Shown one piece after another: positions 5,030-52,983 of a stretch of DNA of 64,000 nucleotides (position 1 is the first letter of the stretch; every line of letters begins with the position of its first letter). The translations under genes and the position numbers were made by a program. The DNA is from a virus (lineage: Duplodnaviria > Caudoviricetes), in the IMG/VR virus record IMGVR_UViG_3300026549_000051, positions 1-64,000 of that record. One strand, 5' to 3'. The notes under the pieces are model-generated. The model worked only from the letters and a program-made list of their open reading frames with translations. It had not been told where the DNA came from and searched no databases.

Positions 5030-5217
5030 GCAAGGGGGATAAATTACTATTAGCCGCAATTATAATATGTGGAGTGATAGCAGCTCTAATTTGGTTTATT
5101 ATTGGTAAAGCAGTGGAGCTGCTTTTTACTGGAAGCATCCGCACGCTCTGTTTTGGGCTGTCGGTGTTTGCCATTGTTTTAGTTGTTGTGTGTTGTATTG
5201 GAGCGAGAAATGAATGA
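5026..5217 (+). CDS. small two-TM membrane protein
   Basis: Two hydrophobic segments; AGGAGG RBS; ATGA overlap. Confidence 0.7.
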   Translation: MSKGDKLLLAAIIICGVIAALIWFIIGKAVELLFTGSIRTLCFGLSVFAIVLVVVCCIGARNE

Positions 5218-10316: not shown

Positions 10317-10379
10317 AGGTTCTTACCCACTCAAGAGCCGTAAAACCCGCCGCAGCTTTTCTCCCGCAGGCGGGTTTTT
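10317..10379 (+). ncRNA. Candidate sRNA A (two hairpins, anti-SD-like loop)
   Basis: TATAAT at 10306, hairpin GGTTCTT/AAGAGCC, terminator hairpin with loop AGCTTTTCTCCC; no ORF. Confidence 0.55.
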
Positions 10380-11418: not shown

Positions 11419-11611
11419 AATATTGAACCATAGTGATGAGGAAATTGTGGCTTATTTGGCTGCCGAATTGGCCGAGATTAAGCGTGTATACGTTAGAGCG
11501 ACAAAAGAGAAGACCCCGGAGCTGTTGTATATGGCGGCGCCTAGCCTAGACGAGGTATATAAGGTCGTGACGGCATTAAATAGACGAAACGAAGAACGTA
11601 AGCTAAAATAA
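11396..11611 (+). CDS. hypothetical protein
   Basis: GGAG RBS, operon position. Confidence 0.7.
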   Translation: MTIDIIGEILNHSDEEIVAYLAAELAEIKRVYVRATKEKTPELLYMAAPSLDEVYKVVTALNRRNEERKLK

Positions 11612-11638
11612 AAGTATTAATAAATAGAAAGGAACTTC

Positions 11639-12331
11639 ATGGAAAATACTCCAGAAGCGCCCGCTGCAGCACCAGCTGCAGAGAGTGTAGCAACTCCTAC
11701 CAACTCTAATCCAGCTCCAGCTCCAGAAATGCCAGACATGCATGGCTTCACGAGCGAGCAGCTTGCCGATATGCGCAAGTTCTACGACAACAATGGTGGG
11801 TGGGAAAAAGTTAAGGCTCGCATCAGCAACCCTACCCCGGCTCCAGCAGAGCAAAAGCCTGCTGAGCCAGCACAACCTGCTGAGCCTCCGAAACCAGCTT
11901 ATAAAGCCCCAGCCGGGTCGATTACTCCACAAGAGTTCTTAGCTCAGCAATATTTCGGCGCTCTCTCTCACGAGGAGAAATATGCAGCTATCGCGAAAGA
12001 GGTAGAAAGTGGCGCGGTTCTCAGGGACATGGCCGCCTTTAATATTCATCCAATGAATGAAGATGGCTCTATTAATGATGTAATGGTTCGCCGTTTCTTG
12101 GATATGAAGGCCGCAACGGTTGCTGCTCGCCAACCAGCTTCTATGCCAGAGGCAGGCGCAGCTCCAACGGTTGATTATGTGCCAGTAGAAGGCAACATTA
12201 AAGATATGCAACAGGCTATGGCAGTTCTCCAACAAGATTCTGCCCTTCGCGCTGCCGGTATGGCCGGGCACCCGTCTGCTGAAGCCGCGGAGAAATTCAT
12301 GCGCGAAACTCTCAATCAGGCCAAGAAATAA
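11639..12331 (+). CDS. putative scaffolding protein
   Basis: Pro/Ala/Glu-rich, Cys-free, between capsid and portal. Confidence 0.55.
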   Translation: MENTPEAPAAAPAAESVATPTNSNPAPAPEMPDMHGFTSEQLADMRKFYDNNGGWEKVKARISNPTPAPAEQKPAEPAQPAEPPKPAYKAPAGSITPQEFLAQQYFGALSHEEKYAAIAKEVESGAVLRDMAAFNIHPMNEDGSINDVMVRRFLDMKAATVAARQPASMPEAGAAPTVDYVPVEGNIKDMQQAMAVLQQDSALRAAGMAGHPSAEAAEKFMRETLNQAKK

Positions 12332-12345
12332 TGGTATACTAATTG

Positions 12346-12411
12346 AGTAGCTTTTTCTCCAATTAAAGCTCGACACCACCCCAGCTTGTTTAGTTCCAGG
12401 GTGGTGTTTTT
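12346..12411 (+). ncRNA. Candidate sRNA B (anti-RBS loop)
   Basis: TGGTATACT -10 at 12332-12340; stem AGCTTT/AAAGCT with loop TTCTCCAATT; terminator ACACCACCC/GGGTGGTGT-TTTT. Confidence 0.65.
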
Positions 12412-12445
12412 ATTGCTTATTAGGGACATATTGTAAAATAAAGTT

Positions 12446-12487
12446 ATGAACTCGTACGACTATTTTAATAACGAAGAGGTAGAGTAG
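12446..12487 (+). CDS. leaderless 13-aa minigene MNSYDYFNNEEVE before portal
   Basis: TAAAAT-N6-ATG; stop 1 nt before portal ATG. Confidence 0.4.
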   Translation: MNSYDYFNNEEVE

Positions 12488-12488
12488 G

Positions 12489-14696
12489 ATGCAGAATTAT
12501 GACTTTATAGACTGGAATCATGATTGGAACTATCCAATTCAATGGCTCGAAGAGTCGGATTTTGCCCGAACCTCGTACCATTACTGGCTTTGGAGGGCCA
12601 GTTTGGCTAAATTAGGCAAGCCTTGTAAGAACCTGTACCAGGAAGAGTTAAAAAGCAATTTGAGCAAAGTCGATTCCGTCGATCGTGCGAAGTATGAAGA
12701 ATATTGTCGTTGCGTTCCAGAGGGAACCTCTTTCGCTATCAAAAAAGCTGTAGACAACCGCGCCAATCAGATGGCGTCTGGCGTGGATACTTATGAGTAT
12801 AAGATTAACGACCCATTTGGTATTATCGATGACGATACTGAGGACTTGCTCTCAGCACAATGCCAAATAGACTATGTCCGCAACCGCCTCAACATCCTCT
12901 CGGCTACTTTCTCCCGTGACCTAACGTGGGCTGGGTTAGCTGCCGTTATCGTCAAATACGACCCAGTGTCCGACAAGAACAAAGTGCTTCGTGTTAACCC
13001 GAAGAACGTCTGGTTCGACACCAAATATTCGTCTCTCGGCCTCGAACGCTTCCGCGGCTATTCCACTATGATTAGCTGGAAGAAGCTCAAGGAGATGATT
13101 GCGAACGATGACAACGAAGAGGTGAACCTTGATATCAAGGCTCCAGATCGCTCAATTTTGAAGGAAGAGGACGACGGCAAAGGTAAAAAAGTTTGGAACG
13201 TTGACAAGGGCGCAAAGTATAGCAACCGCAAAATCCGCACTCTTAACGGTCTTGATATCTATGTGGAGGATTTAAACCGCATTGCTACTTCGACCCAGCT
13301 TATGGGCGGTATTAACCAGTTCGATGAATATGACCATGACCTTCGTACTTGCTACAACCTTAACTGGTATCGCACTTATGCCTCTGACCCGAAGGTTCGT
13401 AGCAAGTCGCTCTACAACGGCGACGATGTTGAGTTGACGGTTCTCTATGACCTTGACCAGAAGATTGAGTTCAAGATTATTAACCGTCGTTATGTGATTT
13501 CCGCAAATGGAAAAGCCTTCCACCGCAAAATCGCCTTTACGATTACGAACCCTGTTACGGGTGAGCAGAAGACTCGCATGGACGACTTTTGTCTTGACTG
13601 CCCTCTTAAAATTCAATTTGAAGAGGAAGAGAATATGGACAAGTTCCCACATCCGTGGTCCCCAGTCTTCTCCCTTCTCGACACGCATGACGAGCTATGT
13701 GGTTGGCGCGCAAAGCGTGACCATGTGAGCAAGATTCTCTCGATTCTCCGCATTGAAACTAACGCTGCTGATGCCGCCTCTCTCCGTGGTGTGCTCAACA
13801 TTATGGGCATTGTGCTTGATGACATCCAGGGCGATATCAACTCAATTAACTTCCAGTACGACTACACTCCGATTGATAGCGAAATTGCCTTCCGTGAACA
13901 GCGTATCCAGCAGATTCTCCACTCTTATGACCAGTTTGACGCGTTACAGGCTATGGGCGACCGTGCAAGTGCTGCTGAGTCTGGTATGGCTTTAGGCGCT
14001 GTAGCACAGGGTCTCTCGACACACCAGAACGCAATCATGCAGCTTTACGCAGATATTGCTCGCCAATGTATCGCTAACCGTGTGGCCTACTCTCCTCGTC
14101 AAGATTTCCCTATCAGTAATTATGGTGGCAACTCTTCTGTATCGATTCAGCAGATGGCGCTCGAGGCGATTGTCAATGTCCGCCCGGCCATGGCTGTTCA
14201 GATCCACGAGAAAGCAGTCGCCGCTAACGCACTCCAGCTTGTCGCTAACCTTGCTCAGAGTGGGCTTATTAACAAGGACGGTGTCGCTTATCTCATGGAG
14301 CGTGCTCTTATGGGAACCGTACCTCGTAAAGTGGCGTCCAGCTTTGTTCGCGAACAGGGTCCAAGCCAAGAGGAGATTGCTCTTGCTCAGCAACAGGCCC
14401 AGAATGAGGCTATGGCGCTTCAGCAGAACCAACAGGCGTATGAGCAGAACCCAGTTCCATATGAGGTGGATAATGTTATGCAGAATCAGTCTCCTGACGA
14501 AATTGATGCCATTATTGACGAATTAGCTGGAGGACAACCTATCCCAGATGAGCGTCAGCTAGCCGAGATGTCCGCAAATAGCGGTGGCCCTCAGGGCGTT
14601 GATATGGAGATGCAAGATGGGGCGATGTCTACTGGCTTAGAGGGGCTGACCCCAGAGACTGGTGGCGAGTACGCGAACCCAAACAGTATGTTATAA
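12489..14696 (+). CDS. portal protein (podovirus type)
   Basis: 735 aa; VLRVNPKNVWFD motif, C-terminal Gln-rich helical barrel and acidic tail as in P22-like portals. Confidence 0.8.
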   Translation: MQNYDFIDWNHDWNYPIQWLEESDFARTSYHYWLWRASLAKLGKPCKNLYQEELKSNLSKVDSVDRAKYEEYCRCVPEGTSFAIKKAVDNRANQMASGVDTYEYKINDPFGIIDDDTEDLLSAQCQIDYVRNRLNILSATFSRDLTWAGLAAVIVKYDPVSDKNKVLRVNPKNVWFDTKYSSLGLERFRGYSTMISWKKLKEMIANDDNEEVNLDIKAPDRSILKEEDDGKGKKVWNVDKGAKYSNRKIRTLNGLDIYVEDLNRIATSTQLMGGINQFDEYDHDLRTCYNLNWYRTYASDPKVRSKSLYNGDDVELTVLYDLDQKIEFKIINRRYVISANGKAFHRKIAFTITNPVTGEQKTRMDDFCLDCPLKIQFEEEENMDKFPHPWSPVFSLLDTHDELCGWRAKRDHVSKILSILRIETNAADAASLRGVLNIMGIVLDDIQGDINSINFQYDYTPIDSEIAFREQRIQQILHSYDQFDALQAMGDRASAAESGMALGAVAQGLSTHQNAIMQLYADIARQCIANRVAYSPRQDFPISNYGGNSSVSIQQMALEAIVNVRPAMAVQIHEKAVAANALQLVANLAQSGLINKDGVAYLMERALMGTVPRKVASSFVREQGPSQEEIALAQQQAQNEAMALQQNQQAYEQNPVPYEVDNVMQNQSPDEIDAIIDELAGGQPIPDERQLAEMSANSGGPQGVDMEMQDGAMSTGLEGLTPETGGEYANPNSML

Positions 14697-14705
14697 GGAG
14701 GCGGT

Positions 14706-17109: not shown

Positions 17110-20100
17110 GTGGCTCACGATATGGCGAAGATAAAATACGAAGAAGTTAATGTTCTCGACGAGAATGGCAATGTGATAGGGACGCAGAGGTATCCAGAAG
17201 GGGGGTCTCTCTACGCAGAAGCTAAAAAGGCTAGGGAAGAGGGTGGTACTTACAGCGTGTACCAGACTAATGCTCCAGACGAAGAGGTTTATACCCCTGT
17301 ATCTGAAGCAAAGGCAACAACCACTATCGACCCAATGACCGGCACGATTACTGTCAGAGGCCCTAAATGGCTGACTGGCGAGATTATTAATTCTGACTCT
17401 TTTAAGAAGAATTACTCCGAGAATAAAGCGCTTCTTGGCCTTGTAAATATGTTCCGCGCTGACCCTAATTCTACTATTGCCGACCCAACGACTGGAGACC
17501 CAATTAAAGTGTCTGACGCATTGAGAACTTTCCAAGATTCGGCAAATAACTATGCGGGGTCTTTCGCGATGATAAAGAACTATAAGGAAGACATTTCCGC
17601 TAAGTATGGTGCTAGCTTTACAGACCAGGATGTTGCCGTTGCTAATACTTTTTACAACAAGGATGACTACAATAAGAGCGGCGCAGTTTATGTCCCCGAC
17701 TGGGCAATGGATAAATATGATTGGTCTGGTTTAGGGTCATGGGACAGCGAAAATAAAACTGTAAGTGCCGAGGATTTTTTCACGGCTGTATATAAACAGG
17801 ATTTTGACGATGCTACTGGCTCAAAACTACAGGAAGAAGCCCTGAAGCGCATGGAGGGGTTCCTCGATTACAACGTATATGACCCGAGCGACGAGGAAGA
17901 AACTAAGACACGCCAAGAGGTTATGGGGGATGCTGGTTATGCAACTGAGCTGGCGCGTACGATTCAAATGTACAATCTTGTAACACAGAATAGGCCAGAA
18001 ACAACGGCGCTATTTGATATGGCGATGTTTGGCGCAACAATGGTGACGGGCGTGGTGGGTTCAGCAATGAATGCTGGGTATAATTTTTCTGCCGTGTTGA
18101 CGCAGTCTTTTGAGTCGATTGTGGACTGGGGCCTTGATGCGGTTGGAGTTGAAGACGAGAACAGGACGGGAGTGGGGTGGCTTCTTCTCGGTAATCCAGC
18201 GTATCTCGCTGGTTATATGGCTGGCGAGTTCCTCAACCTTCTGCGAGATGGTGGCGACCCACAGAAGATTATCGCTGACCTTCAAGCTGATGCGCTAGCC
18301 TTAGCGAGAGGCCACCTTGGCGATCAATACGATAAATATAATGAAGAACTAACAAAAACTTTCGACGAATTCAATGAGCGGATGCAGATGATTTCTGGAT
18401 CCGCTGCGGCTGGCGAGATGGTCGGCAACCTTATTTGGAAAATCGCTGAGAATATTATTCTTCTCAACGCTGCTGGTGGCGCGATTGAAAAAGGTATCTC
18501 TGCATTAGGTAGTGGAACTGGCATAGCCACATTTATGGGCAAGGCAATGTCTGCTAAGAGTGTCGCTACTGTGTTCAAGGTGCTTGGCTTTGCCAGTAAC
18601 GTTACGGCGCAGGGTTTACTCGAAACCATGGTTGACGATAAACAGCTCGTCAATAAGGCTTTTGCTAGCGGTGAAATAACCCCAGAGTTGGCTGAGAAAA
18701 TCGTCTCCAATATCTGGTGGAACACCATCGGTGAGGGCGCGATGAGAGGTCTAGAAGGCTTCTTCAACAAGACTGTCAGTGGTCAGGTGATTTCTATGGG
18801 GGCCGGCAAAGTCACTGCAGCCGCCGGAAGGGCTCGAGACACTATTTTGAGTAAAATCTTTATGAGGCTTAACGGCTTTGGGGCTGGAGAAAAAGTCGCT
18901 GAAGTCGCCGCTCAAACTGGACGCACCGTAGAGGCGTTCAATATTGCCGGGATGGACATGGCGAATGCGATTCGTGACGCAATTCTAAAGAACCCAATCA
19001 TTGGCGAAGCGAGCGAAGACTTCGATGCTCTCGTTAAAAACATTTCTGACATTTTGTTCCCTGGCAAAACTTTAAGCACGGAGGAGCTTGAGGCTTTGTC
19101 CAAGGAGACAGCAGACGCGCTAGAGGATGTCCCTGGGGCTACTACTAAGGGCCTAACTCTTAAGGAGCGTGTTAATGCCAACTTCGAGCGTTATCAGAAG
19201 TTGCGCACCGCTAGAATAGACCTAGAAAACCAGATAGATGCTATCAGCAAAGGCGTTTCTATTAAGCAGACTGAAATTGAGCAGGCTATCGATGCCGATG
19301 GAACCTTCACCAGATTCCAACAGGCTGAAGCCGACATGGCAACGATTGAGAGCAAGCTTGCTTCCGAGGGGGCAGATTTGACTCTCCGTGAATCTGGTAG
19401 CCTGCTCTCGAAAGAGGCGAGCGAGACTATTAGCCTTAAGTCACAGCTAGGCCACTATAAATGGCAACTTGAGAATGCCGATGCGATTGGCTTGCCATCC
19501 ACCAGGATTAACACTATTAAGAAATTCGTAACTTCTGCTGAGGAAAAAATCGCTGGGTATGAGGCTAAATATGGCGCAGAGTGGGCAGCGTCAACCAATA
19601 GAACGCTGGAGGCGATCGGTCGTTATAACAAAGCATTAACGGACTATATGATTGACCATGGTTATGTGGACAGAGATTATGTAGACCTTATTTATAAGCT
19701 TCGTACTCAGGGCTACGGCGATGACGGCTCTTTGTATATACCGACGTCGCGCTTGTTCACTGACGAGGATATCGAGGCTGGTGTTAGAAGGTTTGCCAAC
19801 GAAAACTTTAGCGACAAGGTCGCACTTTTCCGCGCCCGCAAGGTTGTAGGAGATGACCCATTGTATCTTGAGCCAGGGGATATTGATAGCTCATTTATAG
19901 ACCCGACAATGGTGATTTTCACGAAGACGAGGGCTGCCGCTACGGTGGCTCAGGCGCAAGACCTTGGCCGAGCGGTTGAGGCCGCAAACATGATAACCAG
20001 ACAGCTTAAGGGCTTGTCGACTGATGGTTTTTCTGATTATGAGGTTTCGTTAGTTGAGAAGGGGCTTGCCGGACTAAAGAACGAGCTTAATAGTGTCGTG

Positions 20101-31305: not shown

Positions 31306-31839
31306 ATGGCAAAAGCAGTTACATTAAAGAATAGTAACAACGAAGAGGTTTATCCAGTAACGGACATATCTCTCGTGAATGGAGAGCTACCGACAGCTCG
31401 CATTGCAGACGACGCAATCACAACAGATAAGGTGGCAGATGGCGCAGTAACTTCGGACAAGATAGATTGGACGACATTTATCAAACAGACGGAAATGCCG
31501 ATAGTTTCATCTACCTCTATATCGTCTGCATGGACGGCAACGAATTTAGGTTCGGCGCTGACCGTGAGCGGCCTTGATGCGTCCGCGACCTATTCGGTTT
31601 TCGCCATGACCATCTATGCAGAAACCACCGGCGTGGGAGAGTTCAGGCTTCGGGCGACAGGGGCAAACACGGTTCAATGTAATTCATACGCGCCAGGACT
31701 TTTATGCGCAACGCCGTACCAGTTACAGGGTGTTCGACCAAACGCCTCTGGACAAATTACTTTTCAGAGGGTGTACAGCGGCGACGCGGGCAATGTTCGT
31801 TGCGGGCAATGCTATATAACGATTCTGCGTACCGCCTAG
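31306..31839 (+). CDS. tail fibre protein
   Basis: IADDAITTDKVADGAVTSDKIDW repeat. Confidence 0.75.
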   Translation: MAKAVTLKNSNNEEVYPVTDISLVNGELPTARIADDAITTDKVADGAVTSDKIDWTTFIKQTEMPIVSSTSISSAWTATNLGSALTVSGLDASATYSVFAMTIYAETTGVGEFRLRATGANTVQCNSYAPGLLCATPYQLQGVRPNASGQITFQRVYSGDAGNVRCGQCYITILRTA

Positions 31840-31854: not shown

Positions 31855-31978
31855 TTGCCATCCAAGGCAGAATAATGTGTATGATTTGCAGGCGTGCCAT
31901 CGCCGGTATAATCAGCAAGAGACCGCCGACAACTTCGCCCCTCTTTGTTCGAATGGAGGGGAGAAGCGGTGGTTTTTT
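31855..31978 (+). ncRNA. Candidate sRNA/leader ending in a large terminator hairpin
   Basis: GCTATAAT at ~31843, GGTATAAT at ~31904, stem ACCGC...CCCTC/GAGGG...GCGGT then T-tract. Confidence 0.35.
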
Positions 31979-39372: not shown

Positions 39373-40128
39373 ATGGCCAAACAATATCAATGGCAAGTAA
39401 GCATGGATGCCGTAGGCCCAATCGCCGCTGGCGTCCTATCTGGCGATACTTCTTTGCACACCACAGACGTTCTCTCTGGTACATCGACTGCTCAATATTA
39501 CTATCTCGATAGTAACGTGGTCACTAGCGGAACTGCTAACACCTCTCGCGTCGTGATACAAGTGACAGATACTTGGACGGTATCTTTCGACTCTCGCAAT
39601 AACCTGACCGTTAGTGTGTCAAGCGTGCTAGACTCTATCGTTCGTGACAATGTGAACGGCAACCCTGCCGGCTCTTCCAACCTGGCTCGTGACATGAACG
39701 CCTATCAGTACGAGGGCGGTACGTCTCTCTGGTATTATCGTGATACAAATATTAGTGCGGCAAAGACGATCGCCACTAATATCAGCTTGGGCACACATGT
39801 GTTTACTCTAGCCCCTGGTCAAATGGCGTCACGCCACAGTATGTTCTTCTTTAACAAGACTGTTGGCGCTCAGACTGCCGGCGACCGCCTCAATATGGGT
39901 GTTAAGTTCGTGAACATTTTGCCACCTGACTATCGCCCCGGCGCGACACTCGATAGTGGCAGCCTATGGCAGTCTCATAACCGAGAGGGCGGCAAGGCAC
40001 ACATTCTAGGCTCAGGCGGTACATGGGCTGAGATGAGAACTATAGCAGGTCTAGAAGATTCAGACAATCCACCAAGTATCAGATTAAACGATAAATGGTT
40101 CAATCAGCGGAAGATTGGCAAAGAATGA
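39373..40128 (+). CDS. beta-rich fibre tip protein
   Basis: Follows fibre gene; three Trp-containing C-terminal segments. Confidence 0.55.
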   Translation: MAKQYQWQVSMDAVGPIAAGVLSGDTSLHTTDVLSGTSTAQYYYLDSNVVTSGTANTSRVVIQVTDTWTVSFDSRNNLTVSVSSVLDSIVRDNVNGNPAGSSNLARDMNAYQYEGGTSLWYYRDTNISAAKTIATNISLGTHVFTLAPGQMASRHSMFFFNKTVGAQTAGDRLNMGVKFVNILPPDYRPGATLDSGSLWQSHNREGGKAHILGSGGTWAEMRTIAGLEDSDNPPSIRLNDKWFNQRKIGKE

Positions 40129-40138
40129 TATAATAAGC

Positions 40139-40165
40139 AAAAACCCCGGGCAAAACCGGGGTTTT
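40139..40165. terminator. Bidirectional terminator
   Basis: AAAAACCCCGG...CCGGGGTTTT between convergent operons. Confidence 0.8.
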
Positions 40166-40169
40166 GAGA

Positions 40170-40300
40170 CAGCCATCCGCACACACTATTTTTAACAAAA
40201 GATCTTGAACAAATAAGGTGCAACTGTTTGTTTTTCGTGTTTGTTTTGCGATATAAAAGCGAGAGATGAATTACAAGAGATATAGTGTGTGCGAAAGGCC
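40170..40300. ncRNA. Candidate structured RNA (12-bp stem enclosing ~90 nt)
   Basis: CGCACACACTAT (40178-40189) / ATAGTGTGTGCG (40282-40293). Confidence 0.4.
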
Positions 40301-40321
40301 GCCCCAAGTGGGGCGACTTTT

Positions 40322-40564
40322 TTATTTCTTCGCAATGTTTTGCGCAATGGTGATGTAGCCCGAAGTCGCCAAGCCAAACACCATGCCGACCAAGAAATTG
40401 GCGCCGAATACGAGGCCGCCTAGCCCGCCGATAAGAGCAGCAACGATGATAGTGATTGCTGCACGCCAGTCTTTATCGAAGAGGCGCTTAATGAGCTCCA
40501 CTCCGCCAGCCACGAGGCCAGTTAAAACTGCTGTTGCTAAGGTTGATAGACCTAAGATTTCCAT
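40322..40564 (-). CDS. holin
   Basis: 80 aa, 2-3 TM helices, directly downstream of endolysin. Confidence 0.75.
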   Translation of the reverse strand: MEILGLSTLATAVLTGLVAGGVELIKRLFDKDWRAAITIIVAALIGGLGGLVFGANFLVGMVFGLATSGYITIAQNIAKK

Positions 40565-40565
40565 C

Positions 40566-41735
40566 TTATTCTCCTTGTTTTTTAGTGATTAATTCGATTA
40601 TATGCTTAATGAAAGCAATAATCTTCTCAAGAATGCCCACCGTCGGGTCTGCCGGTTCTGGTTCAGGGGTCGGCTCCGGCTCTGGAGTTGGCTCTGGTTC
40701 CGGTTCTGGTGCAGGAATCTCATGCAAGTCCGAAAAAGCAAAGCCGTTATTGATGTTCTTAGAAGAACTGTATTTCGTGCGAAGATAAAGCACGCCATTA
40801 AACGTCGCCTTTTGGTCGAACTCCATGCGCACATCCGCGCCATAGGTTTTCACGACCTCTCCAGTCTCAACGTTGACCAGCTTTGCTCCGTCGTTAGTAA
40901 GCAGAATACGAGGTTCGTCCATCGGCACCCAGGTTAGCTTCTCTGGATATACTGGGTTAGGATAAGTAAAGCCGTTAGATTTAAGGCTGTTATAGGTTAT
41001 CGGGCCTACGTTGCCGTCGGCCTCGAGGCCATTAAGCTCTTGGTATCGTTTGACTGCACCAGCGATATTGTCACCGTAGTAATCGCCCAGGGCTGCCTCA
41101 GGAGTGAACTCTGGATACTTGGCGCGCATCCAGTTGGCGAGCACCGCAATGCGTTCATTTTGGTCGCCCTTCGTCCAGTATCCATTAGGGTATGGCAAGA
41201 AGCCGTCGCAGTATGACGGGTTAAATTGCTCACCACTATTAATGGCGTTAGCTCGGTTTGCTAGCTCCTGCATCTTGCCACGGAGATAATCTCCAGGGCA
41301 GGTCGTAGCGGCATACATCGAGTGCCAGGTTAAGTTCTTACCTGGGACTAATGTTCCTAGTCCGTTACGCTTAGCGATGTCTGCCACCAATTCCACCAGC
41401 TTATTGAAGGTGAGTTCTGATACTGGCCAGCTGCCGCCAGTAGAGCTATTAGACGTTTCGATCGAAACGGTAGTGCAGTTTGATTGCCAGTTGCTGTCTG
41501 ACCATGCACGGTCACTCTCGTTAACATATAGGCCAATCTTCCCATCAGAGCCGACACCGTAATGGGCGGAGCCATTCCGACCAGCTTTCGCAAAAATGCT
41601 ACCGCATTGTGCAGCGGTTAGTACGCCAGCCATATGATGGACAGTGATGTGGGTGATTTTATATCCCCCACGACCAGCCGTATAGTTACCGGAGTGTGCC
41701 TTTACAGTTACGTTCACAAGAGGGCTGTTGCTCAT
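40566..41735 (-). CDS. endolysin, N-acetylmuramoyl-L-alanine amidase with peptidoglycan-binding domain
   Basis: ITVHHMA, SAHY, AWSD, SIE, H...TCPG; AVKRYQELNGLEADGNVGPIT. Confidence 0.92.
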   Translation of the reverse strand: MSNSPLVNVTVKAHSGNYTAGRGGYKITHITVHHMAGVLTAAQCGSIFAKAGRNGSAHYGVGSDGKIGLYVNESDRAWSDSNWQSNCTTVSIETSNSSTGGSWPVSELTFNKLVELVADIAKRNGLGTLVPGKNLTWHSMYAATTCPGDYLRGKMQELANRANAINSGEQFNPSYCDGFLPYPNGYWTKGDQNERIAVLANWMRAKYPEFTPEAALGDYYGDNIAGAVKRYQELNGLEADGNVGPITYNSLKSNGFTYPNPVYPEKLTWVPMDEPRILLTNDGAKLVNVETGEVVKTYGADVRMEFDQKATFNGVLYLRTKYSSSKNINNGFAFSDLHEIPAPEPEPEPTPEPEPTPEPEPADPTVGILEKIIAFIKHIIELITKKQGE

Positions 41736-41863
41736 TTCTTAGCCCCTTTCTTCTTACCAGGCTTTTTGCCTGGACCCATATCGGCAAGCTCGTTGTCGAT
41801 AAAGGACTTTTCCTCCTTATGAACGGTAATGGCTGAGAGAAGAGTTTTTAGCTTTCCCATCAT
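41732..41863 (-). CDS. small basic protein (43 aa)
   Basis: AGGAGG RBS; ATGA overlap with amidase. Confidence 0.6.
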   Translation of the reverse strand: MMGKLKTLLSAITVHKEEKSFIDNELADMGPGKKPGKKKGAKK

Positions 41864-41892
41864 TTCCTCCTTTTCATATATACTTATTATAT

Positions 41893-42297
41893 ATGGAAGA
41901 ACCTAACACTAGCAAAACATTCGACCATGCTAAAGCTGGGATAGGGGACAGAATCGCGGCCATAGGAGAGATGGAACACGCTCGCCGTCATGCCATCAGG
42001 TCTGCTATTTCAGCCGAAGATGAGGGGACTTCGTTTAACTTCTTAGTGTGGGCTAAACAGTTACAAGATATGCGCCGTGCTTATATGAATAAACACTTCG
42101 GCGACATAGATGATAAGTATTGGTGTCTCTGCAAGAGCGCTGCATGCCTAAGGCAGATCGCCTATGAGGTGGACGGAGACGACCTAGAGTTTCTTAAAGA
42201 GGTGGATAACCTCGTGGATAATATTTGGGGCACCGCAGTGGACAAAGACCTGTCTGACTGTGAGGCATGCAGGGACGATAAAAACGCCCCAGAGTAG
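41893..42297 (+). CDS. helical protein with WCLCK and C-terminal CxxC
   Basis: WCLCKSAAC and DCEAC motifs. Confidence 0.7.
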   Translation: MEEPNTSKTFDHAKAGIGDRIAAIGEMEHARRHAIRSAISAEDEGTSFNFLVWAKQLQDMRRAYMNKHFGDIDDKYWCLCKSAACLRQIAYEVDGDDLEFLKEVDNLVDNIWGTAVDKDLSDCEACRDDKNAPE

Positions 42298-42344
42298 AGC
42301 GTTGGTTATAATAAAACTATGAGTGATAATAAGGAAAATAAATA

Positions 42345-43268
42345 ATGGCATTTGTAGATACACTGCGGGAAACGCAAAGATATACCCAAGACGACGCTGA
42401 GCGTAGGGCTAACATTGTAAAAGATTGGGACAAGCTATCCCAGCAATTTACAGATTCTTATAATTCATACCTGAAGAATACAGGTCGGAAAGAAATATCT
42501 GAATTAACTGCTCGCCAGAAGCTACGCGACTTCATTGGAAAAGCCGGAACAGAAGACGGGAAATGGTCCAGCGATGATTACTCGAATTCCAATTACGACG
42601 AGTATGACTTCCAAAAGTATGGAACCCAGACAATCAAAGACTTGCTCGGCGAAAATGGAACTATGGACTTCGGCTCCTATGTAGCGAAATATGGAAATGC
42701 TGACCAGAAAAGAGCTTACGAAAAACAAAACAAAGAACAAAGCACTGGAGAGAAAGTAGCAAAGGGTGTGGGACTTGGGGCAGGACTTGGTGCCCTAGCA
42801 GCGACAGGCCCAATTGGTTGGGCGGCATTTTCGACTGGAGCTGGAATTGGGTCACTATTAAAGTCTGGTTCCGAGAAGTCGCTATCAGATTTAGAGAAAA
42901 AATATACAGAGGAACATAATAACGCACTTAATACTGCGTTTGATGCTTTTGAAAATGCAGACAAGTACCTATCTAATAGAGACAAGGTGGGAGCAGGAGC
43001 AGGAGCAGGAGCTAGCACCGGAGGCGATAGCTCGACCGCCGCAGCTTCTGGTGACGAAGTAACATTCCAACTCGATCGTGCCAACGACCCGAACTACAAA
43101 GGTTTTGGCCAGAAAATCGTTGACCTTGGTCTCGCTACGGATAAAGGTCTATGGGGAAGTAATGGAGATGTCGCCTTCTACACCAAACAGCTTTATGACC
43201 AGGGTGCACTTGACGCAAATGGCAATCTTAAGATTGGTGTACCGATTAAACTTAAAAGGCGTAAATAG
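42345..43268 (+). CDS. putative ejection protein with glycine-zipper TM and LysM-like C-terminus
   Basis: GVGLGAGLGALAATG; NLKIGVPIKL; Cys-free. Confidence 0.55.
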   Translation: MAFVDTLRETQRYTQDDAERRANIVKDWDKLSQQFTDSYNSYLKNTGRKEISELTARQKLRDFIGKAGTEDGKWSSDDYSNSNYDEYDFQKYGTQTIKDLLGENGTMDFGSYVAKYGNADQKRAYEKQNKEQSTGEKVAKGVGLGAGLGALAATGPIGWAAFSTGAGIGSLLKSGSEKSLSDLEKKYTEEHNNALNTAFDAFENADKYLSNRDKVGAGAGAGASTGGDSSTAAASGDEVTFQLDRANDPNYKGFGQKIVDLGLATDKGLWGSNGDVAFYTKQLYDQGALDANGNLKIGVPIKLKRRK

Positions 43269-43296
43269 GCAAGCAAGAACATCGGACGCTAACACT

Positions 43297-43327
43297 AAAA
43301 AAGAAGCCCCATCTGGGGCTCTTTTTT
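43297..43327. terminator. Bidirectional terminator
   Basis: AAAAAAG-AGCCCC...GGGGCT-CTTTTTT. Confidence 0.8.
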
Positions 43328-43408
43328 ATTTCTTCTTTTTAGTTTCGCCTTCCATCACAACGATGAAAGCTACGGCTAAGAAGAGTCCAAACAATATAAC
43401 ACCTAACA

Positions 43409-43672
43409 TTATTCTGTAAACCACTCGTCTTCAATATGCGGTTCTTTTTTGTTCTTAGCTGGACCTCGTCGCGAAATAACTCCGCCTTTAGCTCCTGCTA
43501 CCTTGGCTCGCTCTGGGCCAGTAAGCCCATCCTTGCCTGGTTCTTCAGAAGCGAACCCACCAGTGTGTCCGTTCTTTCCGCCTTTGCGACCAATGTTAAC
43601 GTAGAACTCTCTACCATATTTTGCTTTATTTGTTGCGGCGGCTTTAAGACCACCAGCTACCGTGCCTGGCAT
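43409..43672 (-). CDS. KGG-repeat (stress-induced motif) protein
   Basis: IGRKGG...AGAKGG repeats. Confidence 0.85.
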   Translation of the reverse strand: MPGTVAGGLKAAATNKAKYGREFYVNIGRKGGKNGHTGGFASEEPGKDGLTGPERAKVAGAKGGVISRRGPAKNKKEPHIEDEWFTE

Positions 43673-43709
43673 AGCTTTTTCTCCTTATATTAATTATGGT
43701 TATATTTTA

Positions 43710-44558
43710 TTACGCTTGTGTATCTTCGTCAAGCAGTTTGTCGATTTCGTCGAACACTCCTCCGCTAAATGGATTTTGGAGGTTACGGATATTATCCTTC
43801 TCGTTTGCCTTCTCCATTGCTTCCTGCCATTCCCCCTGACTCTTATATGGGGAATTGTAGGTATTTTCCCCCACAATAACCTTCCATCCCTTCCAGCGCT
43901 TGTGTCTAGGGACATCTTCCTCGTAGAATTTAATGTCATACTTCTTGATTAGCGACAGCATCTCGTCTCGGAGTTCTGGGACATCCACATACTCTAGGTA
44001 TGTGCCATAGACCCTGAGCGGCTCGTCCTTATGCTCGAGGTTATACTTATGCACAAGACTGAAGCAGTTTTCCACAACCCTTAACACATATGATTTTGGG
44101 TATAGTGGGTTCTTGTTCTTAAACATCGTGATAAGTCTGCCACTATGGATGCCGTCATGGCAGGTGCGACAGATAGCTACCACACGCTCGAACTTACCAG
44201 TCTGCTTATCGTAGTCATAACTGAACAGCTCATGAGCATGAAGGTCGCCCTTCTTTGGTTCACGACCACAAATCTCGCACTTATACCCAGCGTTGTAATA
44301 TGCGCTCTTTCGCATGAAGTCCCAAGTAGTCTTGCCGAAGATGGTGCGAGGCTGCATACCCTGACCATGAAGAGGACGAGGGACATTCGGCATTGTGATT
44401 AACGGGATACCAGTCCCCTCAGGACATCGCCATTGCTTGACCTTTTCCACATCGAATGGCTCCATCGGTTTAAGAAGATCTCTAGCCTCGGCTTCCCCCA
44501 TAGCCATCATAGAGTCGTCCACCATCTGCTCGGTCAATAACTTTTTAACCGCCCCCAT
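43710..44558 (-). CDS. HNH-family protein
   Basis: CEICG...LHAHE...ICRTCH. Confidence 0.75.
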   Translation of the reverse strand: MGAVKKLLTEQMVDDSMMAMGEAEARDLLKPMEPFDVEKVKQWRCPEGTGIPLITMPNVPRPLHGQGMQPRTIFGKTTWDFMRKSAYYNAGYKCEICGREPKKGDLHAHELFSYDYDKQTGKFERVVAICRTCHDGIHSGRLITMFKNKNPLYPKSYVLRVVENCFSLVHKYNLEHKDEPLRVYGTYLEYVDVPELRDEMLSLIKKYDIKFYEEDVPRHKRWKGWKVIVGENTYNSPYKSQGEWQEAMEKANEKDNIRNLQNPFSGGVFDEIDKLLDEDTQA

Positions 44559-44860
44559 TAGTCTTTCATCCTATTATTTTCAGTCACCGTAGCCTCTTCG
44601 CTACTCTCCAAGAGTGCATCAATAATTTTAAGCAGATGCCTATACTCATCTTCGCTAGCCTTAAAAGCTTTCTTAGAACGACGGATATCTATATCTGCAC
44701 CATTATCAAGCATCTCCTGCATATATTCCTCAAAGTCTTCAGCACGATACTTGAGGAATTTTTCCCCAGCCTCTTTTATCATTCTACGCACGGCTGTAAC
44801 GCTTACAAAGAAACCATCCGGCGTGAACACCGCCTCAGGTTTTTTATTTTTCTTAAACAT
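44558..44860 (-). CDS. hypothetical protein
   Basis: Coupled operon ORF. Confidence 0.7.
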   Translation of the reverse strand: MFKKNKKPEAVFTPDGFFVSVTAVRRMIKEAGEKFLKYRAEDFEEYMQEMLDNGADIDIRRSKKAFKASEDEYRHLLKIIDALLESSEEATVTENNRMKD

Positions 44861-45065
44861 TCTCTTTCTCCTCTCTTGCTTTTATCTCGTCCAGTTTCTC
44901 CTTATTATGCTCACGCCAAGCCTTTTGTTTCACGGTAGCTTCGTCGTTGCCACACCATGCGCACCTTCCTTCCGCCACAAAGAAACCATGATTTTCTTTG
45001 CCACATTTTGGGCATCGGACCATATAAAACATATCGTCAGAGGCAAAATTTTCTCCCCAACTCAT
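44853..45065 (-). CDS. zinc-ribbon protein
   Basis: CPKC...CAWC. Confidence 0.7.
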   Translation of the reverse strand: MSWGENFASDDMFYMVRCPKCGKENHGFFVAEGRCAWCGNDEATVKQKAWREHNKEKLDEIKAREEKENV

Positions 45066-45442
45066 TCTTCCTCCTCTCCGCATAGTTCGGCGATAGTATG
45101 TACCTCGCCGTCTTTAAGCGTTGGTATCCAACCGACGAGTTCGATGCTGAAGTCATCGTCGCTCATGTCCGTTAGAACATATATACTTCTGTCTGACTTC
45201 TCGGCATATAAGACGTTCTTAATCGAGTTGATTTCTGCCCACGCTCTGACTGCCTTGCGAATCTTCTCATCTTTGATGAGTGGCTCTTTTGGCGGGTTGT
45301 ATTCCTCGTATGCGGCGTAATCGCCCATTAAATCTTCCACAGTGTCGTAGCCATCTACCTGCATAACTCCGTCGGAGTCGAGGTACATCGCTATAACTCT
45401 GGCTTCCGCGCCAGTCTTCTTGTTTACAAACTTATGTTTCAT
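45062..45442 (-). CDS. hypothetical protein
   Basis: Coupled operon ORF. Confidence 0.75.
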   Translation of the reverse strand: MKHKFVNKKTGAEARVIAMYLDSDGVMQVDGYDTVEDLMGDYAAYEEYNPPKEPLIKDEKIRKAVRAWAEINSIKNVLYAEKSDRSIYVLTDMSDDDFSIELVGWIPTLKDGEVHTIAELCGEEEE

Positions 45443-45852
45443 TACTCTCCTTTCAAGGTTTTCCTTAAAATATAACCAGTGGACTCTACGCCGTCAGGAA
45501 GTTTGCCATTAAGCTCAATGTATGACTTAACTTTTTTATTATTAATAGTCTTCTTGATATCACATAATGAGTCGTCTACGCTGTCGATATCTGCGGCTTT
45601 GTATTTGCCACTTGGTGTCAGCTTGAGCTTAATATAATCATTCTCGTGCTCGGACATCTTATGCTCAATCATATACTCTTTAACCATTGCCCATAGAGCT
45701 TCGAGAGCTTCGTCGTTATGTTTCTTCTCGGCAAGATAGTCGGCGAACTGTTTACTCTGTAACGCCAGTTCGTCTGCGCGAATTGCCAAGCTTTTCTCTT
45801 TATCTACTGCCTCGTCAATTAACTGATCGAGAGCCTCCAAATCATTGTTCAT
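45442..45852 (-). CDS. Gp157/Gam-like coiled-coil protein
   Basis: Coiled coil plus KK-x-K...G-x-LPDGVE; next to recombination genes. Confidence 0.5.
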   Translation of the reverse strand: MNNDLEALDQLIDEAVDKEKSLAIRADELALQSKQFADYLAEKKHNDEALEALWAMVKEYMIEHKMSEHENDYIKLKLTPSGKYKAADIDSVDDSLCDIKKTINNKKVKSYIELNGKLPDGVESTGYILRKTLKGE

Positions 45853-45863
45853 TGCTTTTCCCC

Positions 45864-46082
45864 CTATACGCTCAGCATAATCATCATTGCAAGGACGAAT
45901 ATTATACCTAATACAATTTCAAATACGCCTAACACCTTAGCCCAAGCGCTCCCCTTGAGTGCCAGCGCACCGAGTACAATGGACGCAATGCCCATAATGC
46001 CGCCCATCACAAAGATGCCAATAATAATAGTTACGATTCCTGCAATAGCGAAGCCGTTGCTTGTTTGTTCTTGATTGTTCAT
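45864..46082 (-). CDS. small membrane protein (DUF4190-like)
   Basis: SNGFAIAG...GIASIVLG...AKVLG. Confidence 0.65.
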   Translation of the reverse strand: MNNQEQTSNGFAIAGIVTIIIGIFVMGGIMGIASIVLGALALKGSAWAKVLGVFEIVLGIIFVLAMMIMLSV

Positions 46083-46251
46083 TTCTTCTTCTCCAAATTC
46101 TTACTTAAAAATTCACATATATCGTAGGCAAGCGTGAGACTTTTTTCTTCTTCCCACTCTGCCACCATTGCTTTTAATTGTTCTAGTTTTGTCATAGCTT
46201 ACCTCCAAATTTAGTTTTTAGTTGCCCCACTAGGCAGGGGCACGCCTTATA

Positions 46252-46773
46252 TTAAAACGGTAAATCAACGTCAGATAAGTCGACTTCTTCCGCACCAGCC
46301 ATTGGCTCTTCCTTCTTGTCGCTGTCACGACGCATGGCGACTGAGCGATCGGTAAACTCTGCGCGAGAGTATTTACCTTCAGTATAGACTTCGATTTCTA
46401 CCTCAGGCTTTTTAGCGAGTAAGGTCTCAAAGCCCTTAAGATATGCTTTAGCCGCATACTCGAAGTCATCCTTCGCTTCGGCTAGTTCGCAACACTTCTT
46501 GGCTTTCTCTTCAGTAGCACCGAGAGCTACGAACAAATCTTTCATATGCTTAATACGCCAGCCAGCTTTGTCTTTAACCATCCAGTGGTCGGCGGTTGGG
46601 AACTGGAAGTTGTCAGTGTCTTCAAAGTGGAACTTAACAACTTTGTTGCCCTTAGTACCAGCGTCTTTAATTTCTACGCCGTCACACTTTACTGTGTATG
46701 TGCCATCATCAGCGTAGTCTTTGTATTGTGAGCCATACTGCTCTTCAATATCATCCCAGTTAATACCTGCCAT
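46252..46773 (-). CDS. single-stranded DNA-binding protein (DUF669-like)
   Basis: GTYTVK, acidic tail DVDLPF, downstream of Sak4-like gene. Confidence 0.75.
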   Translation of the reverse strand: MAGINWDDIEEQYGSQYKDYADDGTYTVKCDGVEIKDAGTKGNKVVKFHFEDTDNFQFPTADHWMVKDKAGWRIKHMKDLFVALGATEEKAKKCCELAEAKDDFEYAAKAYLKGFETLLAKKPEVEIEVYTEGKYSRAEFTDRSVAMRRDSDKKEEPMAGAEEVDLSDVDLPF

Positions 46774-46775
46774 AA

Positions 46776-47483
46776 CTATTTCTCCTTTTTAGGTTTTAAG
46801 ATTTCATTAATATCTACCTCATCGATATCGACTTCACCAGTCTTACCGAGGCGGTTTTTAGCCAACGCAACGTTATCGCTTTCGAGCACCAACTTGCGTT
46901 TGCCTTCGGCATCCTTCTTAAGATAGAAGACGTTATCACACCACTCCACAAATACATTCATGGTGTTCACGTCGATCTTCGGACTAATCTGCTCAACATC
47001 CACACCATCAGCATCCATAATATGCTTCTTATCGGCATGGGCGATGAGGCAAATGCCGTAGCCCTTTTTATTTAATGCCACTAAAGTAGGCAACAACTTT
47101 GTGCGGATATGGTTCTCAAGCACCTGCTTGCCATTACCGTAGCCACCGTTAGAACGGTTAAGTGTTTCCTCGAGGTTGCGGGAGTCAATGCCAGCAGCCT
47201 GTTCTACCACCTTACGCACCATCCAGTCGGTCGAGTCGATAACTAGCGTATCGAACTGACGCTCCTTCGCATGGTACAAGTCGGCGAGGTCTTCGTAGAA
47301 CTTCTTTAAGTCTTGGTATTGCTTGGTGCGTTTGACGCCAAGGTAATTCAAGCCTCCCTCGAAGTCCATAAACAATGGATTCTTGAGCTTCGATGCCAGC
47401 GTAGATTTGCCTACGCCGCTGAGACCATAGATCATTACCTTTGGTGCGGTCAATGTGACACCTTCAATAATGTCTAAACTCAT
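46776..47483 (-). CDS. Sak4-like AAA recombinase
   Basis: IYGLSGVGKST, DFEGG, LVIDS, LIAH, AKNR. Confidence 0.85.
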   Translation of the reverse strand: MSLDIIEGVTLTAPKVMIYGLSGVGKSTLASKLKNPLFMDFEGGLNYLGVKRTKQYQDLKKFYEDLADLYHAKERQFDTLVIDSTDWMVRKVVEQAAGIDSRNLEETLNRSNGGYGNGKQVLENHIRTKLLPTLVALNKKGYGICLIAHADKKHIMDADGVDVEQISPKIDVNTMNVFVEWCDNVFYLKKDAEGKRKLVLESDNVALAKNRLGKTGEVDIDEVDINEILKPKKEK

Positions 47484-47568
47484 CCGAGTCCTTTCCAAAT
47501 TGTATTGTTATTATTTATAGTTTCCCCCTACCTTCATTTTACCATACATATTCGACCATGTGTATGGA

Positions 47569-47710
47569 GCAGATGGGCAATGGAACCAAGAACTTTTTGA
47601 CAAAAAGTTTATCAACTCACGAGGTACAAATGTGAATTTTTTGATGAAAAGTCTATGCGTAAAAGTGAAGGTAATACAACAAAGATTGTAAAAATACGCT
47701 ACCCATCTGC
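47569..47710. ncRNA. Candidate structured RNA (stem enclosing ~125 nt)
   Basis: GCAGATGGG (47569-47577) / CCCATCTGC (47702-47710) in 270-nt intergenic gap. Confidence 0.4.
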
Positions 47711-47770
47711 CTCTAGTTTGTGAAGAACCACCACGCTCTTTAACGCCTGACATGGCACGAAGGCATTTGT

Positions 47771-48139
47771 TTAGTGGAAGAAGCCTTTTGGCTTCGTATT
47801 GTCCGCGATAAGCGAGACCTTCTCGAGAATCTTGTTCAAGACCTCGATGACGATTTCAGCCTGAGCTTCCGTGAAATTGATTTCAAGTGGCGTGGTTACA
47901 GACTCGCTAATTGCCTCTGCAATTCTCTCCCCCTCGGTTTTACTAGAGGTGTTCTTTTGTAGGACAAAAGTTCGATATTCATCAAGGTCTTCTGCCTTCT
48001 TAATACGCCAGAATGTTGACTGGCTAATATTCATAGCTCGCTGGATCTCTCTGCCAGATAAGCCTGTGTCAATTAGTGTTTTGACTGCATTAAAACTATG
48101 CTCGTCAATTTTGCGATATTTACGAACCTTCTTGTTCAT
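47771..48139 (-). CDS. helix-turn-helix DNA-binding protein
   Basis: GLSGREIQRAMNISQSTFWRIK. Confidence 0.8.
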   Translation of the reverse strand: MNKKVRKYRKIDEHSFNAVKTLIDTGLSGREIQRAMNISQSTFWRIKKAEDLDEYRTFVLQKNTSSKTEGERIAEAISESVTTPLEINFTEAQAEIVIEVLNKILEKVSLIADNTKPKGFFH

Positions 48140-48203
48140 TTGTTTTCTCCAATTAAATTAATATTACATTCACTTTTGTTTGTGTTGTTTTAAACATATC
48201 ACA

Positions 48204-48863
48204 CTATTTTCCTTCAGTCAATTCCTCCTCCAATTTCTTGCACCAGTTCTTCTCCGAGAAGTCTGACTTGCCTTTTAAACAGGCGTAGATGTCATCTTCG
48301 ATAGTTCCCACCGACTTTTGTCTTTTGTAGGCGTCTCGCTTCTGCTTGAGCCTAGCATTATGGCGGCACTCATCGCTACAATATTTTGTTGTACCACTTG
48401 GGACAAATTCTTCGCCACAGAAACTGCAACGCGGATAATCGCCAGCTTTTATACGCTTATATGTTTTGGTGTACTTATAGCCATTATTTTTAAGCGACCT
48501 CCTATTTACCTCCCTTCTCCCATTAAGTCTACACTCGCTACTGCAATATGTATTATGTTTCTCATATGGAACAAATTTTTTTCCACAGAAACAACAGTAA
48601 GCTGTTCTTTTGACATACGGTGCTCTAATAGGCTCGTTATTTGCATGCCATTTCTTATGGCACTTCACGCAAAGCCAGGAAACTTCCAGAGGTTTATTAT
48701 AATCGTTATGGTGTGCTTCCACTTTCTCAGTAGAGCCACAGCATTCACACGGCATCTTAGCCATTGTCCCAGACTTAATCGCCTTACGGACTAATGAGTG
48801 AGCCCTGTGCTCAGCCCTGAACTTCATATATTGATCATGCGTTTTCTCTTGTTCTGTCTTCAT
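48204..48863 (-). CDS. HNH homing endonuclease with zinc-finger repeats, fused to a helicase-like C-terminus
   Basis: CECCG...EAHHNDY...WLCVKCH; CxxCG-x-x-F...YCS-x-ECR x2. Confidence 0.85.
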   Translation of the reverse strand: MKTEQEKTHDQYMKFRAEHRAHSLVRKAIKSGTMAKMPCECCGSTEKVEAHHNDYNKPLEVSWLCVKCHKKWHANNEPIRAPYVKRTAYCCFCGKKFVPYEKHNTYCSSECRLNGRREVNRRSLKNNGYKYTKTYKRIKAGDYPRCSFCGEEFVPSGTTKYCSDECRHNARLKQKRDAYKRQKSVGTIEDDIYACLKGKSDFSEKNWCKKLEEELTEGK

Positions 48864-51256: not shown

Positions 51257-51266
51257 GGTCTTCTCC

Positions 51267-51752: not shown

Positions 51753-51794
51753 AGTTTTTTCTCCAATTAGTTTTAATAGTTCCCCTCTGATTTA

Positions 51795-51823: not shown

Positions 51824-51825
51824 TA

Positions 51826-52966: not shown

Positions 52967-52983
52967 TTTCTTCTCCTTTCTTA

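Follow-up and report, generated by a model that had tools for sequence, protein, structure and literature searches.

What does the short intergenic segment between a 230-aa gene and the portal-size gene encode in this uncultured phage, and could its product act on genes elsewhere in the same genome? We analyzed the first 64 kb (the window) of a 111,102-bp IMG/VR virus record, in which a first-pass annotation had placed a promoter, a unit of about 65 nt and a terminator at this locus and had interpreted the product as a late RNA directed against the ribosome-binding sites (RBSs) of early genes. The promoter, unit and terminator were all recovered with the sequence and positions that had been proposed (Table 1). 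The predicted promoter P1, of the extended −10, sigma-70 type, carries a TGnTATAAT-like motif, TGGTATACT, from which transcription is predicted to start about 7 nt downstream; no match to a −35 box was found upstream of this motif. The same arrangement of hexamer and six-base spacer also lies ahead of leaderless ATGs elsewhere in the genome. The terminator has the organization of an intrinsic (Rho-independent) terminator, a G+C-rich hairpin directly followed by a U-run, and the whole unit folds with a minimum free energy of −24.3 kcal/mol (z = −3.3 against 200 dinucleotide shuffles). A consensus promoter/terminator scan missed both P1 and the terminator owing to the limits of its rules, the latter because its loop exceeds 8 nt. 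The exposure of CTCC that had been claimed for the 5′ hairpin is borne out by the predicted fold, in which the 10-nt loop TTCTCCAATT (12355–12364) presents CTCC, the proposed anti-Shine-Dalgarno (anti-SD) seed, at 12357–12360. As a second promoter, P2, follows the terminator, P1 appears dispensable for expression of the next gene.

Table 1. Positions of the intergenic unit, its neighbouring genes and the candidate target start regions (TIRs) in the window
Feature	Position	Strand	Details
230-aa gene	11639–12331	+	Upstream of the unit; no family match; stop codon TAA at 12329–12331
Promoter P1 (predicted)	12332–12340	+	Extended −10 box TGGTATACT, directly 3′ of the 230-aa gene stop codon
Predicted non-coding RNA, 65 nt	12347–12411	+	Starts at the 7th base past the −10 box and includes the whole T-run
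5′ hairpin	12349–12370	+	AGCTTT (12349–12354) pairs with AAAGCT (12365–12370)
Intrinsic terminator	12372–12411	+	10-bp G+C-rich stem (12372–12408), structured loop, T5 (12407–12411)
Promoter P2 (predicted)	12434–12448	+	TAAAAT (12434–12439), 6 nt, ATG (12446); next gene
735-aa portal-size gene	12489–14696	+	Downstream of the unit; rightward structural arm
Candidate target 1, TIR of 87-aa KGG-repeat gene (43409–43672)	43672–43684	−	13 nt, GGAGAAAAAGCTA; SD to A of ATG
Candidate target 2, TIR of 122-aa HTH_7 protein gene (47771–48139)	48143–48157	−	15 nt, TTTAATTGGAGAAAA
Candidate target 3, TIR of 161-aa gene (51267–51752)	51756–51769	−	14 nt, TAATTGGAGAAAAA
Candidate target 4, TIR of 86-aa ORF (53725–53985)	53991–54002	−	12 nt, TTAATTGGAGAA

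The record itself comprises two related phage genomes of about 55–60 kb placed end to end rather than one: genome A takes up roughly the first 56.4 kb and genome B the remainder, up to 111.1 kb, and the two share syntenic blocks with 65–91% nucleotide identity. The genome B unit is identical to that of a stand-alone 59.9-kb metagenome contig (L034), and the record probably arose through chimeric assembly or concatenation and does not represent a single genome. Searches of PHROGs and Pfam left the 230-aa and 735-aa genes unnamed, along with three of the four target genes, the products of target genes 3 and 4 being proteins of no named family. Among 50,697 phage records, no cultured relative was detected by megablast with the region 11600–14700 or by tblastn with the 735-aa protein. 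The group is common in ruminant-gut metagenomes, and about 20 ruminant and pig gut runs contain 0.4–0.5 of the sequence words, a value used as a habitat label only. A 2.5-kb contig (L110, CAMYWN010000110.1) with a copy of the 230-aa gene of the L004 type and the unit is binned in a Candidatus Saccharibacteria MAG, which is a weak hint at a host from that group.

Neither strand of the unit contains an ORF. Rfam 15 returned no family at the gathering threshold anywhere in the window, and among 13 related loci the sole match at that threshold was an unrelated tRNA, with neither RybB nor any other small-RNA family reaching it. The best sub-threshold match was RybB (RF00110; 26.9 bits, E = 0.0012, at 12342–12414), for which the gathering threshold is 40 bits. 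RybB is of similar size, about 80 nt, and likewise has a terminator downstream of a U-rich 5′ seed; it depends on sigma-E, is found in enterobacteria and acts on the coding regions and 5′ UTRs of porin mRNAs. On the minus strand, the sequence TTTAATTGGAGAAAAAGCTA has the form of a classic TIR of the early genes of this phage, and the segment might accordingly be taken for the real or vestigial RBS of a minus-strand gene. The first-pass annotation had argued that no ATG follows on that strand, which is true in the window and extends to most relatives: among 39 related units, 33 lack an ATG, GTG or TTG 3–12 nt past the GGAG, and the remaining six open minus-strand ORFs of just 2–24 codons. Moreover, the polarity of promoter and terminator is that of the plus strand, as are the G·U pairs described below, and we regard a minus-strand RBS as barely conceivable. 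Nor does the unit resemble a cis-encoded antisense RNA of the sar/OOP type, as the DNA opposite it contains no gene start and the candidate targets lie at 43.7–54.0 kb.

To follow the unit in relatives, viral, metagenome and genome contigs were searched with the 230-aa protein, which yielded about 80 loci with 46 distinct intergenic versions and identities of the flanking protein from about 40% to 99%. A TATAAT, TATACT or TAAAAT hexamer lies just past the stop codon in 44 of these versions, the −10 box beginning 0–21 nt downstream of it, and a terminator is present in 45, with differing stem sequences. CTCC occurs 6–18 nt past the −10 box in 41 of the 46 versions, or in 42 when L032, whose unit sits further downstream, is included; the expectation for a chance CTCC in so short an interval is a few percent by our own estimate, the sequences being related and the comparison not a formal test. 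A second −10 box, followed by 6–7 nt and an ATG, is found past the terminator in 38 versions. The relatives without CUCC are G005/L033, which have the promoter and terminator only, L040 (CUUCC) and L030 (UUCU).

The CUCC seed is placed in one of two ways, either in the loop (type I) or at positions +2 to +6 (type II), and is the sole element common to both types. Type I comprises the window, genome B and lineages L002, L003, L004, L032, L036 and L050. Here, the predicted +1 is the first base of the hairpin and CUCCAA lies in the loop; the motif is invariant in 15 distinct type I sequences with a mean column identity of 55%. In type II, the predicted RNA starts (G/A)(U)CUCCUUUC, that is, +1 followed at once by (U)CUCC, and this 5′ end pairs with a downstream GAAAGG, so that CUCC stands at the 5′ end, partly within a stem. 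Many type II hairpin loops contain a second CUCC. Between the 5′ hairpin and the terminator of type II units, we also observed a conserved single-stranded AUAGUUGUU (L005, L010, L045, L052, L057–L059, L061, L070 and L072); the TTG within it was considered as a start codon and rejected, since stops follow in L005 and L045 on inspection by eye.

The 5′ hairpin is weak (−0.2 to −7 kcal/mol) and is kept by compensatory changes between lineages. At least six lineage-specific stems surround the invariant CUCCAA, namely AGCUUU/AAAGCU, GCUUUU/AAAGGU, GUUCUUU/AAAGAAU, AUCUUUUG/CGAAAGAU, GAACUU/AAGUUU and UAAACUU/AAGUUUA. Native arms pair with −3.9 kcal/mol, compared to −1.9 kcal/mol for arms swapped between lineages, and none of 20,000 permutations of these phylogenetically related sequences reached the native mean; this arm-swap test was used instead of a formal covariation count because the MAFFT alignment (A2) was out of structural register. 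Several of the stem pairs are G·U, which on the minus strand become A·C mismatches; thus, the hairpin structure belongs to the plus-strand RNA. Among close relatives, the hairpin is the best-conserved segment, with identities of 100%, 100% and 92% for the 24-nt hairpin against 94%, 90% and 85% for the neighbouring coding sequence. Taken with the lack of an ORF and of an Rfam match, this conservation and plus-strand structure make an ORF-less plus-strand transcription unit the most economical reading, and on the strength of these sequence features we consider it probable that the locus is a real, conserved non-coding RNA unit of uncultured ruminant-gut phages with genomes of about 55–60 kb. If the RNA is real, it represents a new and widely conserved small-RNA family in phages that are common in this habitat.

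The invariance of the two adenines in CUCCAA is better explained by closure of the hairpin on its U-rich arm than by the targets, as TIRs mostly read AAGGAG and do not account for an invariant AA past CUCC. UUGGAG start regions were considered as the cause of this invariance and rejected, TTGGAG TIRs being frequent in genome A only. Mimicry of the tRNA-Trp anticodon loop (CUCCAAA) was rejected as well, given loop sizes from 4 to 10 nt.

The central claim of the first-pass annotation concerned four exact antisense matches of 15, 14, 13 and 12 nt to RBS regions of early genes. All four are present in minus-strand TIRs at the positions that had been reported, each directly upstream of the ATG of a minus-strand ORF (Table 1). 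In addition, the loop and 3′ arm match TTAATT upstream of GGAG in three early genes. As TIRs resemble each other, we used three null models for these matches. In the first, the 20-mer matched two sites at up to three mismatches, compared to none in 100 whole-window shuffles. In the second, CTCC and the composition of each flank were kept and the flanks shuffled, which gave a probability of 0.002 for a longest match of at least 15 nt and of 0.003 for four matches of at least 12 nt. In the third, 40 real GGAG-containing TIRs of genome A served as pseudo-seeds: no mutual match exceeded 13 nt, eight of them had a partner of at least 12 nt, and none had more than two such partners. The segment thus surpasses both shuffles and real TIRs, and none of the real start regions is as central to the early set as this segment; it is also the only non-TIR site of the late region that is matched by several TIRs. 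In cofold calculations for genome A, the KGG gene scored best (ddG −16.5 kcal/mol), with −16.2 kcal/mol for the 161-aa gene and −12.4 kcal/mol for the HTH gene, and these three rank 1, 2 and 4 of 83 genome A genes when the opening cost of both RNAs is included.

These results bear on the possibility that the locus has no separate function, with the terminator serving the mRNA of the 230-aa gene, the −10 box being fortuitous or residual, and the likeness to RBSs reflecting low complexity or an old inverted copy of a TIR. Start regions are sufficiently alike that any TIR-like string finds partners, as the eight pseudo-seeds illustrate, arms made of U-runs and A-runs pair trivially, and some relatives lack the CUCC hairpin. 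Nevertheless, the −10 box, CUCC and hairpin persist where the flanking proteins are only 40–50% identical, native arms pair more stably than swapped ones, the hairpin is better conserved than the flanking coding sequence, and the window segment tops every real TIR in both length and number of matches. We therefore find a locus with no function of its own improbable.

How far does the complementarity hold beyond the window? For three of four RNAs compared, the longest exact TIR match lies in the RNA's own genome, with 15 nt against at most 10 nt in foreign genomes for RNA A, 12 nt against at most 10 nt for RNA B, and 14 nt against at most 10 nt for RNA C (G001). In the fourth, the complete genome G006, the RNA matches its own TIRs over at most 9 nt and does no worse in foreign genomes. 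Genome B and G001 have one long TIR match apiece, and these 12–14-nt matches are no better than those of real TIRs among themselves. The three longest matches come from TTAATTGGAG start regions, a type confined to genome A. On the 5′ side, the best matches begin at GGAG and reach the start codon: the KGG gene of genome A gives 13 nt, in genome B a 69-aa gene at 100212 gives 12 nt, and the KGG gene of G001 gives 14 nt with the ATG included. Furthermore, the window RNA has T5 facing A5 in the KGG site, and the G001 RNA has T4 facing A4 in its KGG site. Covariation of loop and RBS in relatives had been put forward as a check, and this is one correlated change; the four pairings themselves are confined to the lineage of the window. 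The G001 orthologues of the KGG and 161-aa genes are among the top three predicted targets of the G001 RNA; the 161-aa gene and its G001 orthologue both begin MGRYY. KGG was also considered as a universal target and rejected, its TIR being complementary in genome A and G001 but not in genome B or G006.

Neither duplexfold nor cofold produced a clear diagonal of own-genome specificity, the scores do not separate own from foreign genomes for two of the four RNAs, and by energy each RNA pairs about equally with 15–30% of the TIRs in any genome. As these energies are alike across genomes, specificity is weak, and the RNA, if it pairs with mRNAs at all, would be a broad, low-specificity anti-SD RNA with lineage-specific extensions. 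That the four sites in the window are its physiological targets is doubtful.

The early mRNAs had been described as GGAGAA-led, which agrees with our counts. When early genes (in the window, minus strand, 40000–56400) are compared with late genes (plus strand, 6500–40200), GGAGAA occurs in 17 of 55 early and 5 of 63 late TIRs over both genomes (p = 0.0018), whereas GGAGG in genome A is found in 1 of 28 early and 8 of 32 late genes. The RNA is also predicted to pair more strongly with early TIRs than with late ones (Mann-Whitney p = 0.02 and 0.012). The first-pass annotation had further proposed a translational switch from which leaderless late transcripts escape. Most late genes still have SD sites, mainly GGAGG, and therefore a simple switch between SD-led and leaderless initiation is too simple and leaderless escape is at best partial; as a global switch, we rate this idea as quite improbable. 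Judging from its position, the unit itself would be expressed late. Independently of the unit, we observed a string GG(R)AACTAT(A/T)(T/A)AA 15–35 nt upstream of several early-gene start regions (window about 51780–51800, 54010–54030 and 47500–47530, minus strand), which may be an early or middle promoter motif.

The available RNA data are assembled metatranscriptome contigs of low depth from four RNA runs. One 230-nt RNA-library contig covers 12352–12581 with one mismatch; only five bases at the 5′ end of the predicted RNA are missing from it, and it continues past the terminator into the following gene. The contig hints weakly at initiation at P1 with read-through, or equally at DNA carry-over, and its end at 12352 could be due to chance at this depth. 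No RNA contig covers 11000–12337, a gap that proves nothing, and contigs from two studies begin at 12425 and 12439, ahead of the ATG at 12446 taken as 'leaderless', ends that are not read as start sites here.

Read-through of this kind is what a cis-acting leader would produce, in which P1, hairpin and terminator form an attenuation or processive-antitermination module that gates read-through into the portal/structural operon and a factor of phage or host origin recognizes the CUCC hairpin. Lambdoid phages provide precedents in the PR′ 6S RNA with Q and boxB with N, as well as the put elements of HK022. Like the PR′ 6S RNA and boxB, the unit would give a short transcript ending at a terminator ahead of the late genes and has a conserved loop on variable stems, and both the order of promoter, hairpin and terminator ahead of a long late operon and the invariant loop with co-varying stems, as in boxB, fit such a leader, as would the contig that runs from 12352 across the terminator to 12581 and the presence of several other mini-units of TATAAT, N6, hairpin and terminator in these genomes. 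In contrast to the lambdoid leaders, there is a second promoter past the terminator, we saw nothing resembling boxA or qut, and no gene for an antiterminator was identified. Moreover, this separate −10-N6-ATG promoter is kept in 38 of the 46 relatives, the next gene has no SD in most relatives and read-through RNA would be translated poorly, predicted folds contain two independent hairpins with no alternative antiterminator pairing, and the differing placement of CUCC in types I and II fits a linear pairing motif better than a fixed protein site. A cis-acting leader is therefore unlikely in our view.

Several other mini-units were seen in these genomes. In the window, a unit termed 'sRNA A' (10318–10379) has the same build, with TATAAT-N6, a hairpin from +1 and a terminator, and its terminator loop contains AGCUUUUCUCCC, identical to the seed of the present unit (sRNA B) at 11 of 12 bases. 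Its homologue in genome B has UUUCCC in that place and no CUCC, and no such unit was seen in G001. Further examples lie at 5073–5127 and 31919–31978 of the window, at 31797–31834 and 45249–45271 of G005, and at 19654–19690 of G006. In some of these, TATAAT is exactly six bases ahead of the base of the terminator hairpin with nothing between. Such mini-units would yield RNAs of 23–38 nt, or would point to another role for the −10 box beside terminators.

A further alternative is that the RNA is real and binds protein, either as a decoy or sponge for a factor that recognizes the pyrimidine-rich CUCC, for example a reader of the 16S 3′ tail, or as the operator at which a regulator of the phage binds RNA. 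Protein-binding hairpins, too, have a constant loop on stems that co-vary, evidence for co-variation with targets across genomes is weak, and the type II 5′ end CUCCUUUC would, by our own comparison, equal part of the 16S 3′ tail of many bacteria. Yet no protein emerged as a candidate partner, CUCC is placed differently with respect to the structure in types I and II, and the long TIR matches of the window lineage would have to be coincidence (flank-shuffle p = 0.002). We give such a protein-binding role a small chance.

The reading that we prefer is masking of RBSs by an RNA acting in trans. CUCC is the core of the anti-SD sequence, and the U-rich 5′ arm of type I complements the A-rich spacer past GGAG in early genes. 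A host-type −10 promoter right after the stop codon of the 230-aa gene would start the RNA at the base of the weak, A-U-rich hairpin, and the strong intrinsic terminator would stop it at about 50–75 nt. The CUCC, displayed in the type I hairpin loop or as the extreme 5′ terminus of the second subtype, would nucleate on the GGAG of RBSs, and pairing would then spread through the U-rich 5′ arm or weak A-U stem along the spacer of GGAGAA-type TIRs to the AUG, so that masking from SD to AUG would block binding of the 30S subunit. The sequences show a conserved anatomy, strand and motif and, in this genome, the complementarity; from these we infer transcription, action in trans, targets and timing along the lines given, and tentatively suggest, with confidence a little short of even, that the unit represents a new phage small-RNA family that masks GGAGA-type RBSs by anti-SD pairing. 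If true, a phage of virulent type would shut its own early genes at the RBS by means of an RNA instead of a nuclease, which makes this a testable case, and genomes with a mixture of SD-led and leaderless genes offer a possible natural system to ask whether the two initiation modes are regulated against each other. In a bolder version, the RNA would be an abundant late mimic of the 16S anti-SD tail, as suggested by the type II 5′ end, that coats early GGAGA-type SDs and perhaps those of the host, freeing ribosomes for leaderless late mRNAs; such an RNA-only counterpart of RegB, acting as a switch between translational classes and possibly in Saccharibacteria phages, strikes us as a long shot.

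RBS masking has precedents among phage RNAs. P1/P7 c4 and P22 sar are about 70 nt long and block translation by pairing of a loop or hairpin at the RBS of a phage gene; c4 is processed from the operon that it regulates, sar is encoded opposite its target, and both act in temperate-phage immunity. The c4 RNA of P1/P7 is among the phage RNAs mentioned previously (PMC12197685). The present unit is likewise phage-encoded and about 70 nt long, with RBS occlusion by a hairpin or loop as its proposed action, but it has its own predicted promoter in the late region, several candidate targets 31–42 kb away with matches of 12–15 nt, and no sequence similarity to either RNA. C-rich loops that pair with SD sequences are also known from RsaE/RoxS and the RNAIII hairpins of Firmicutes and from the 'cuckoo' RNAs CcsR/alpha-r14 of Alphaproteobacteria. 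The unit shares with these an exposed seed of the UCCC/CCUCC type, the combination of hairpin and terminator, and many potential targets, but differs in being phage-borne rather than chromosomal, in its unrelated sequence without a match to an Rfam model, and in its single CUCC and its 3′ UTR position right after the stop codon of a late gene.

In their location, a parallel is provided by DapZ and MicL, bacterial small RNAs embedded in 3′ UTRs, which are Hfq-dependent and have their own promoters inside coding sequence. As in the unit, transcription of the small RNA is driven from close to the 3′ end of the preceding gene and the terminator is common to small RNA and mRNA; in the phages, the −10 box is located 0–21 nt past the stop codon, not within the coding sequence. 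The endoribonuclease RegB of phage T4 inactivates the phage's own early mRNAs at the GGAG of their SDs (PMC1702504, PMC3014915). The likeness to RegB is functional only and limited to the proposed logic, in which early mRNAs are hit at the SD GGAG; RegB is a protein nuclease assisted by S1, whereas the unit is an RNA proposed to mask the site. The unit resembles the RBS-occluding antisense RNAs, the C-rich-loop small RNAs and RegB in its proposed action but belongs to none of these three groups, being without sequence or covariance-model similarity to them, not cis-encoded and not a protein.

Downstream of the unit, a mini-ORF of 13 codons, MNSYDYFNNEEVE-stop (window 12446–12491), begins at the leaderless ATG at 12446 and duplicates the N-terminus of the portal-size protein of relatives (MDSYDF...), and the real start of the portal-size gene at 12489 has gained a GAGG of its own. 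An analogous 12-codon mini-ORF with the end TAA-ATG is present in L004 and L110. Judging from these sequences, a short duplication seems to have changed the mode of initiation from leaderless to SD-led or coupled.
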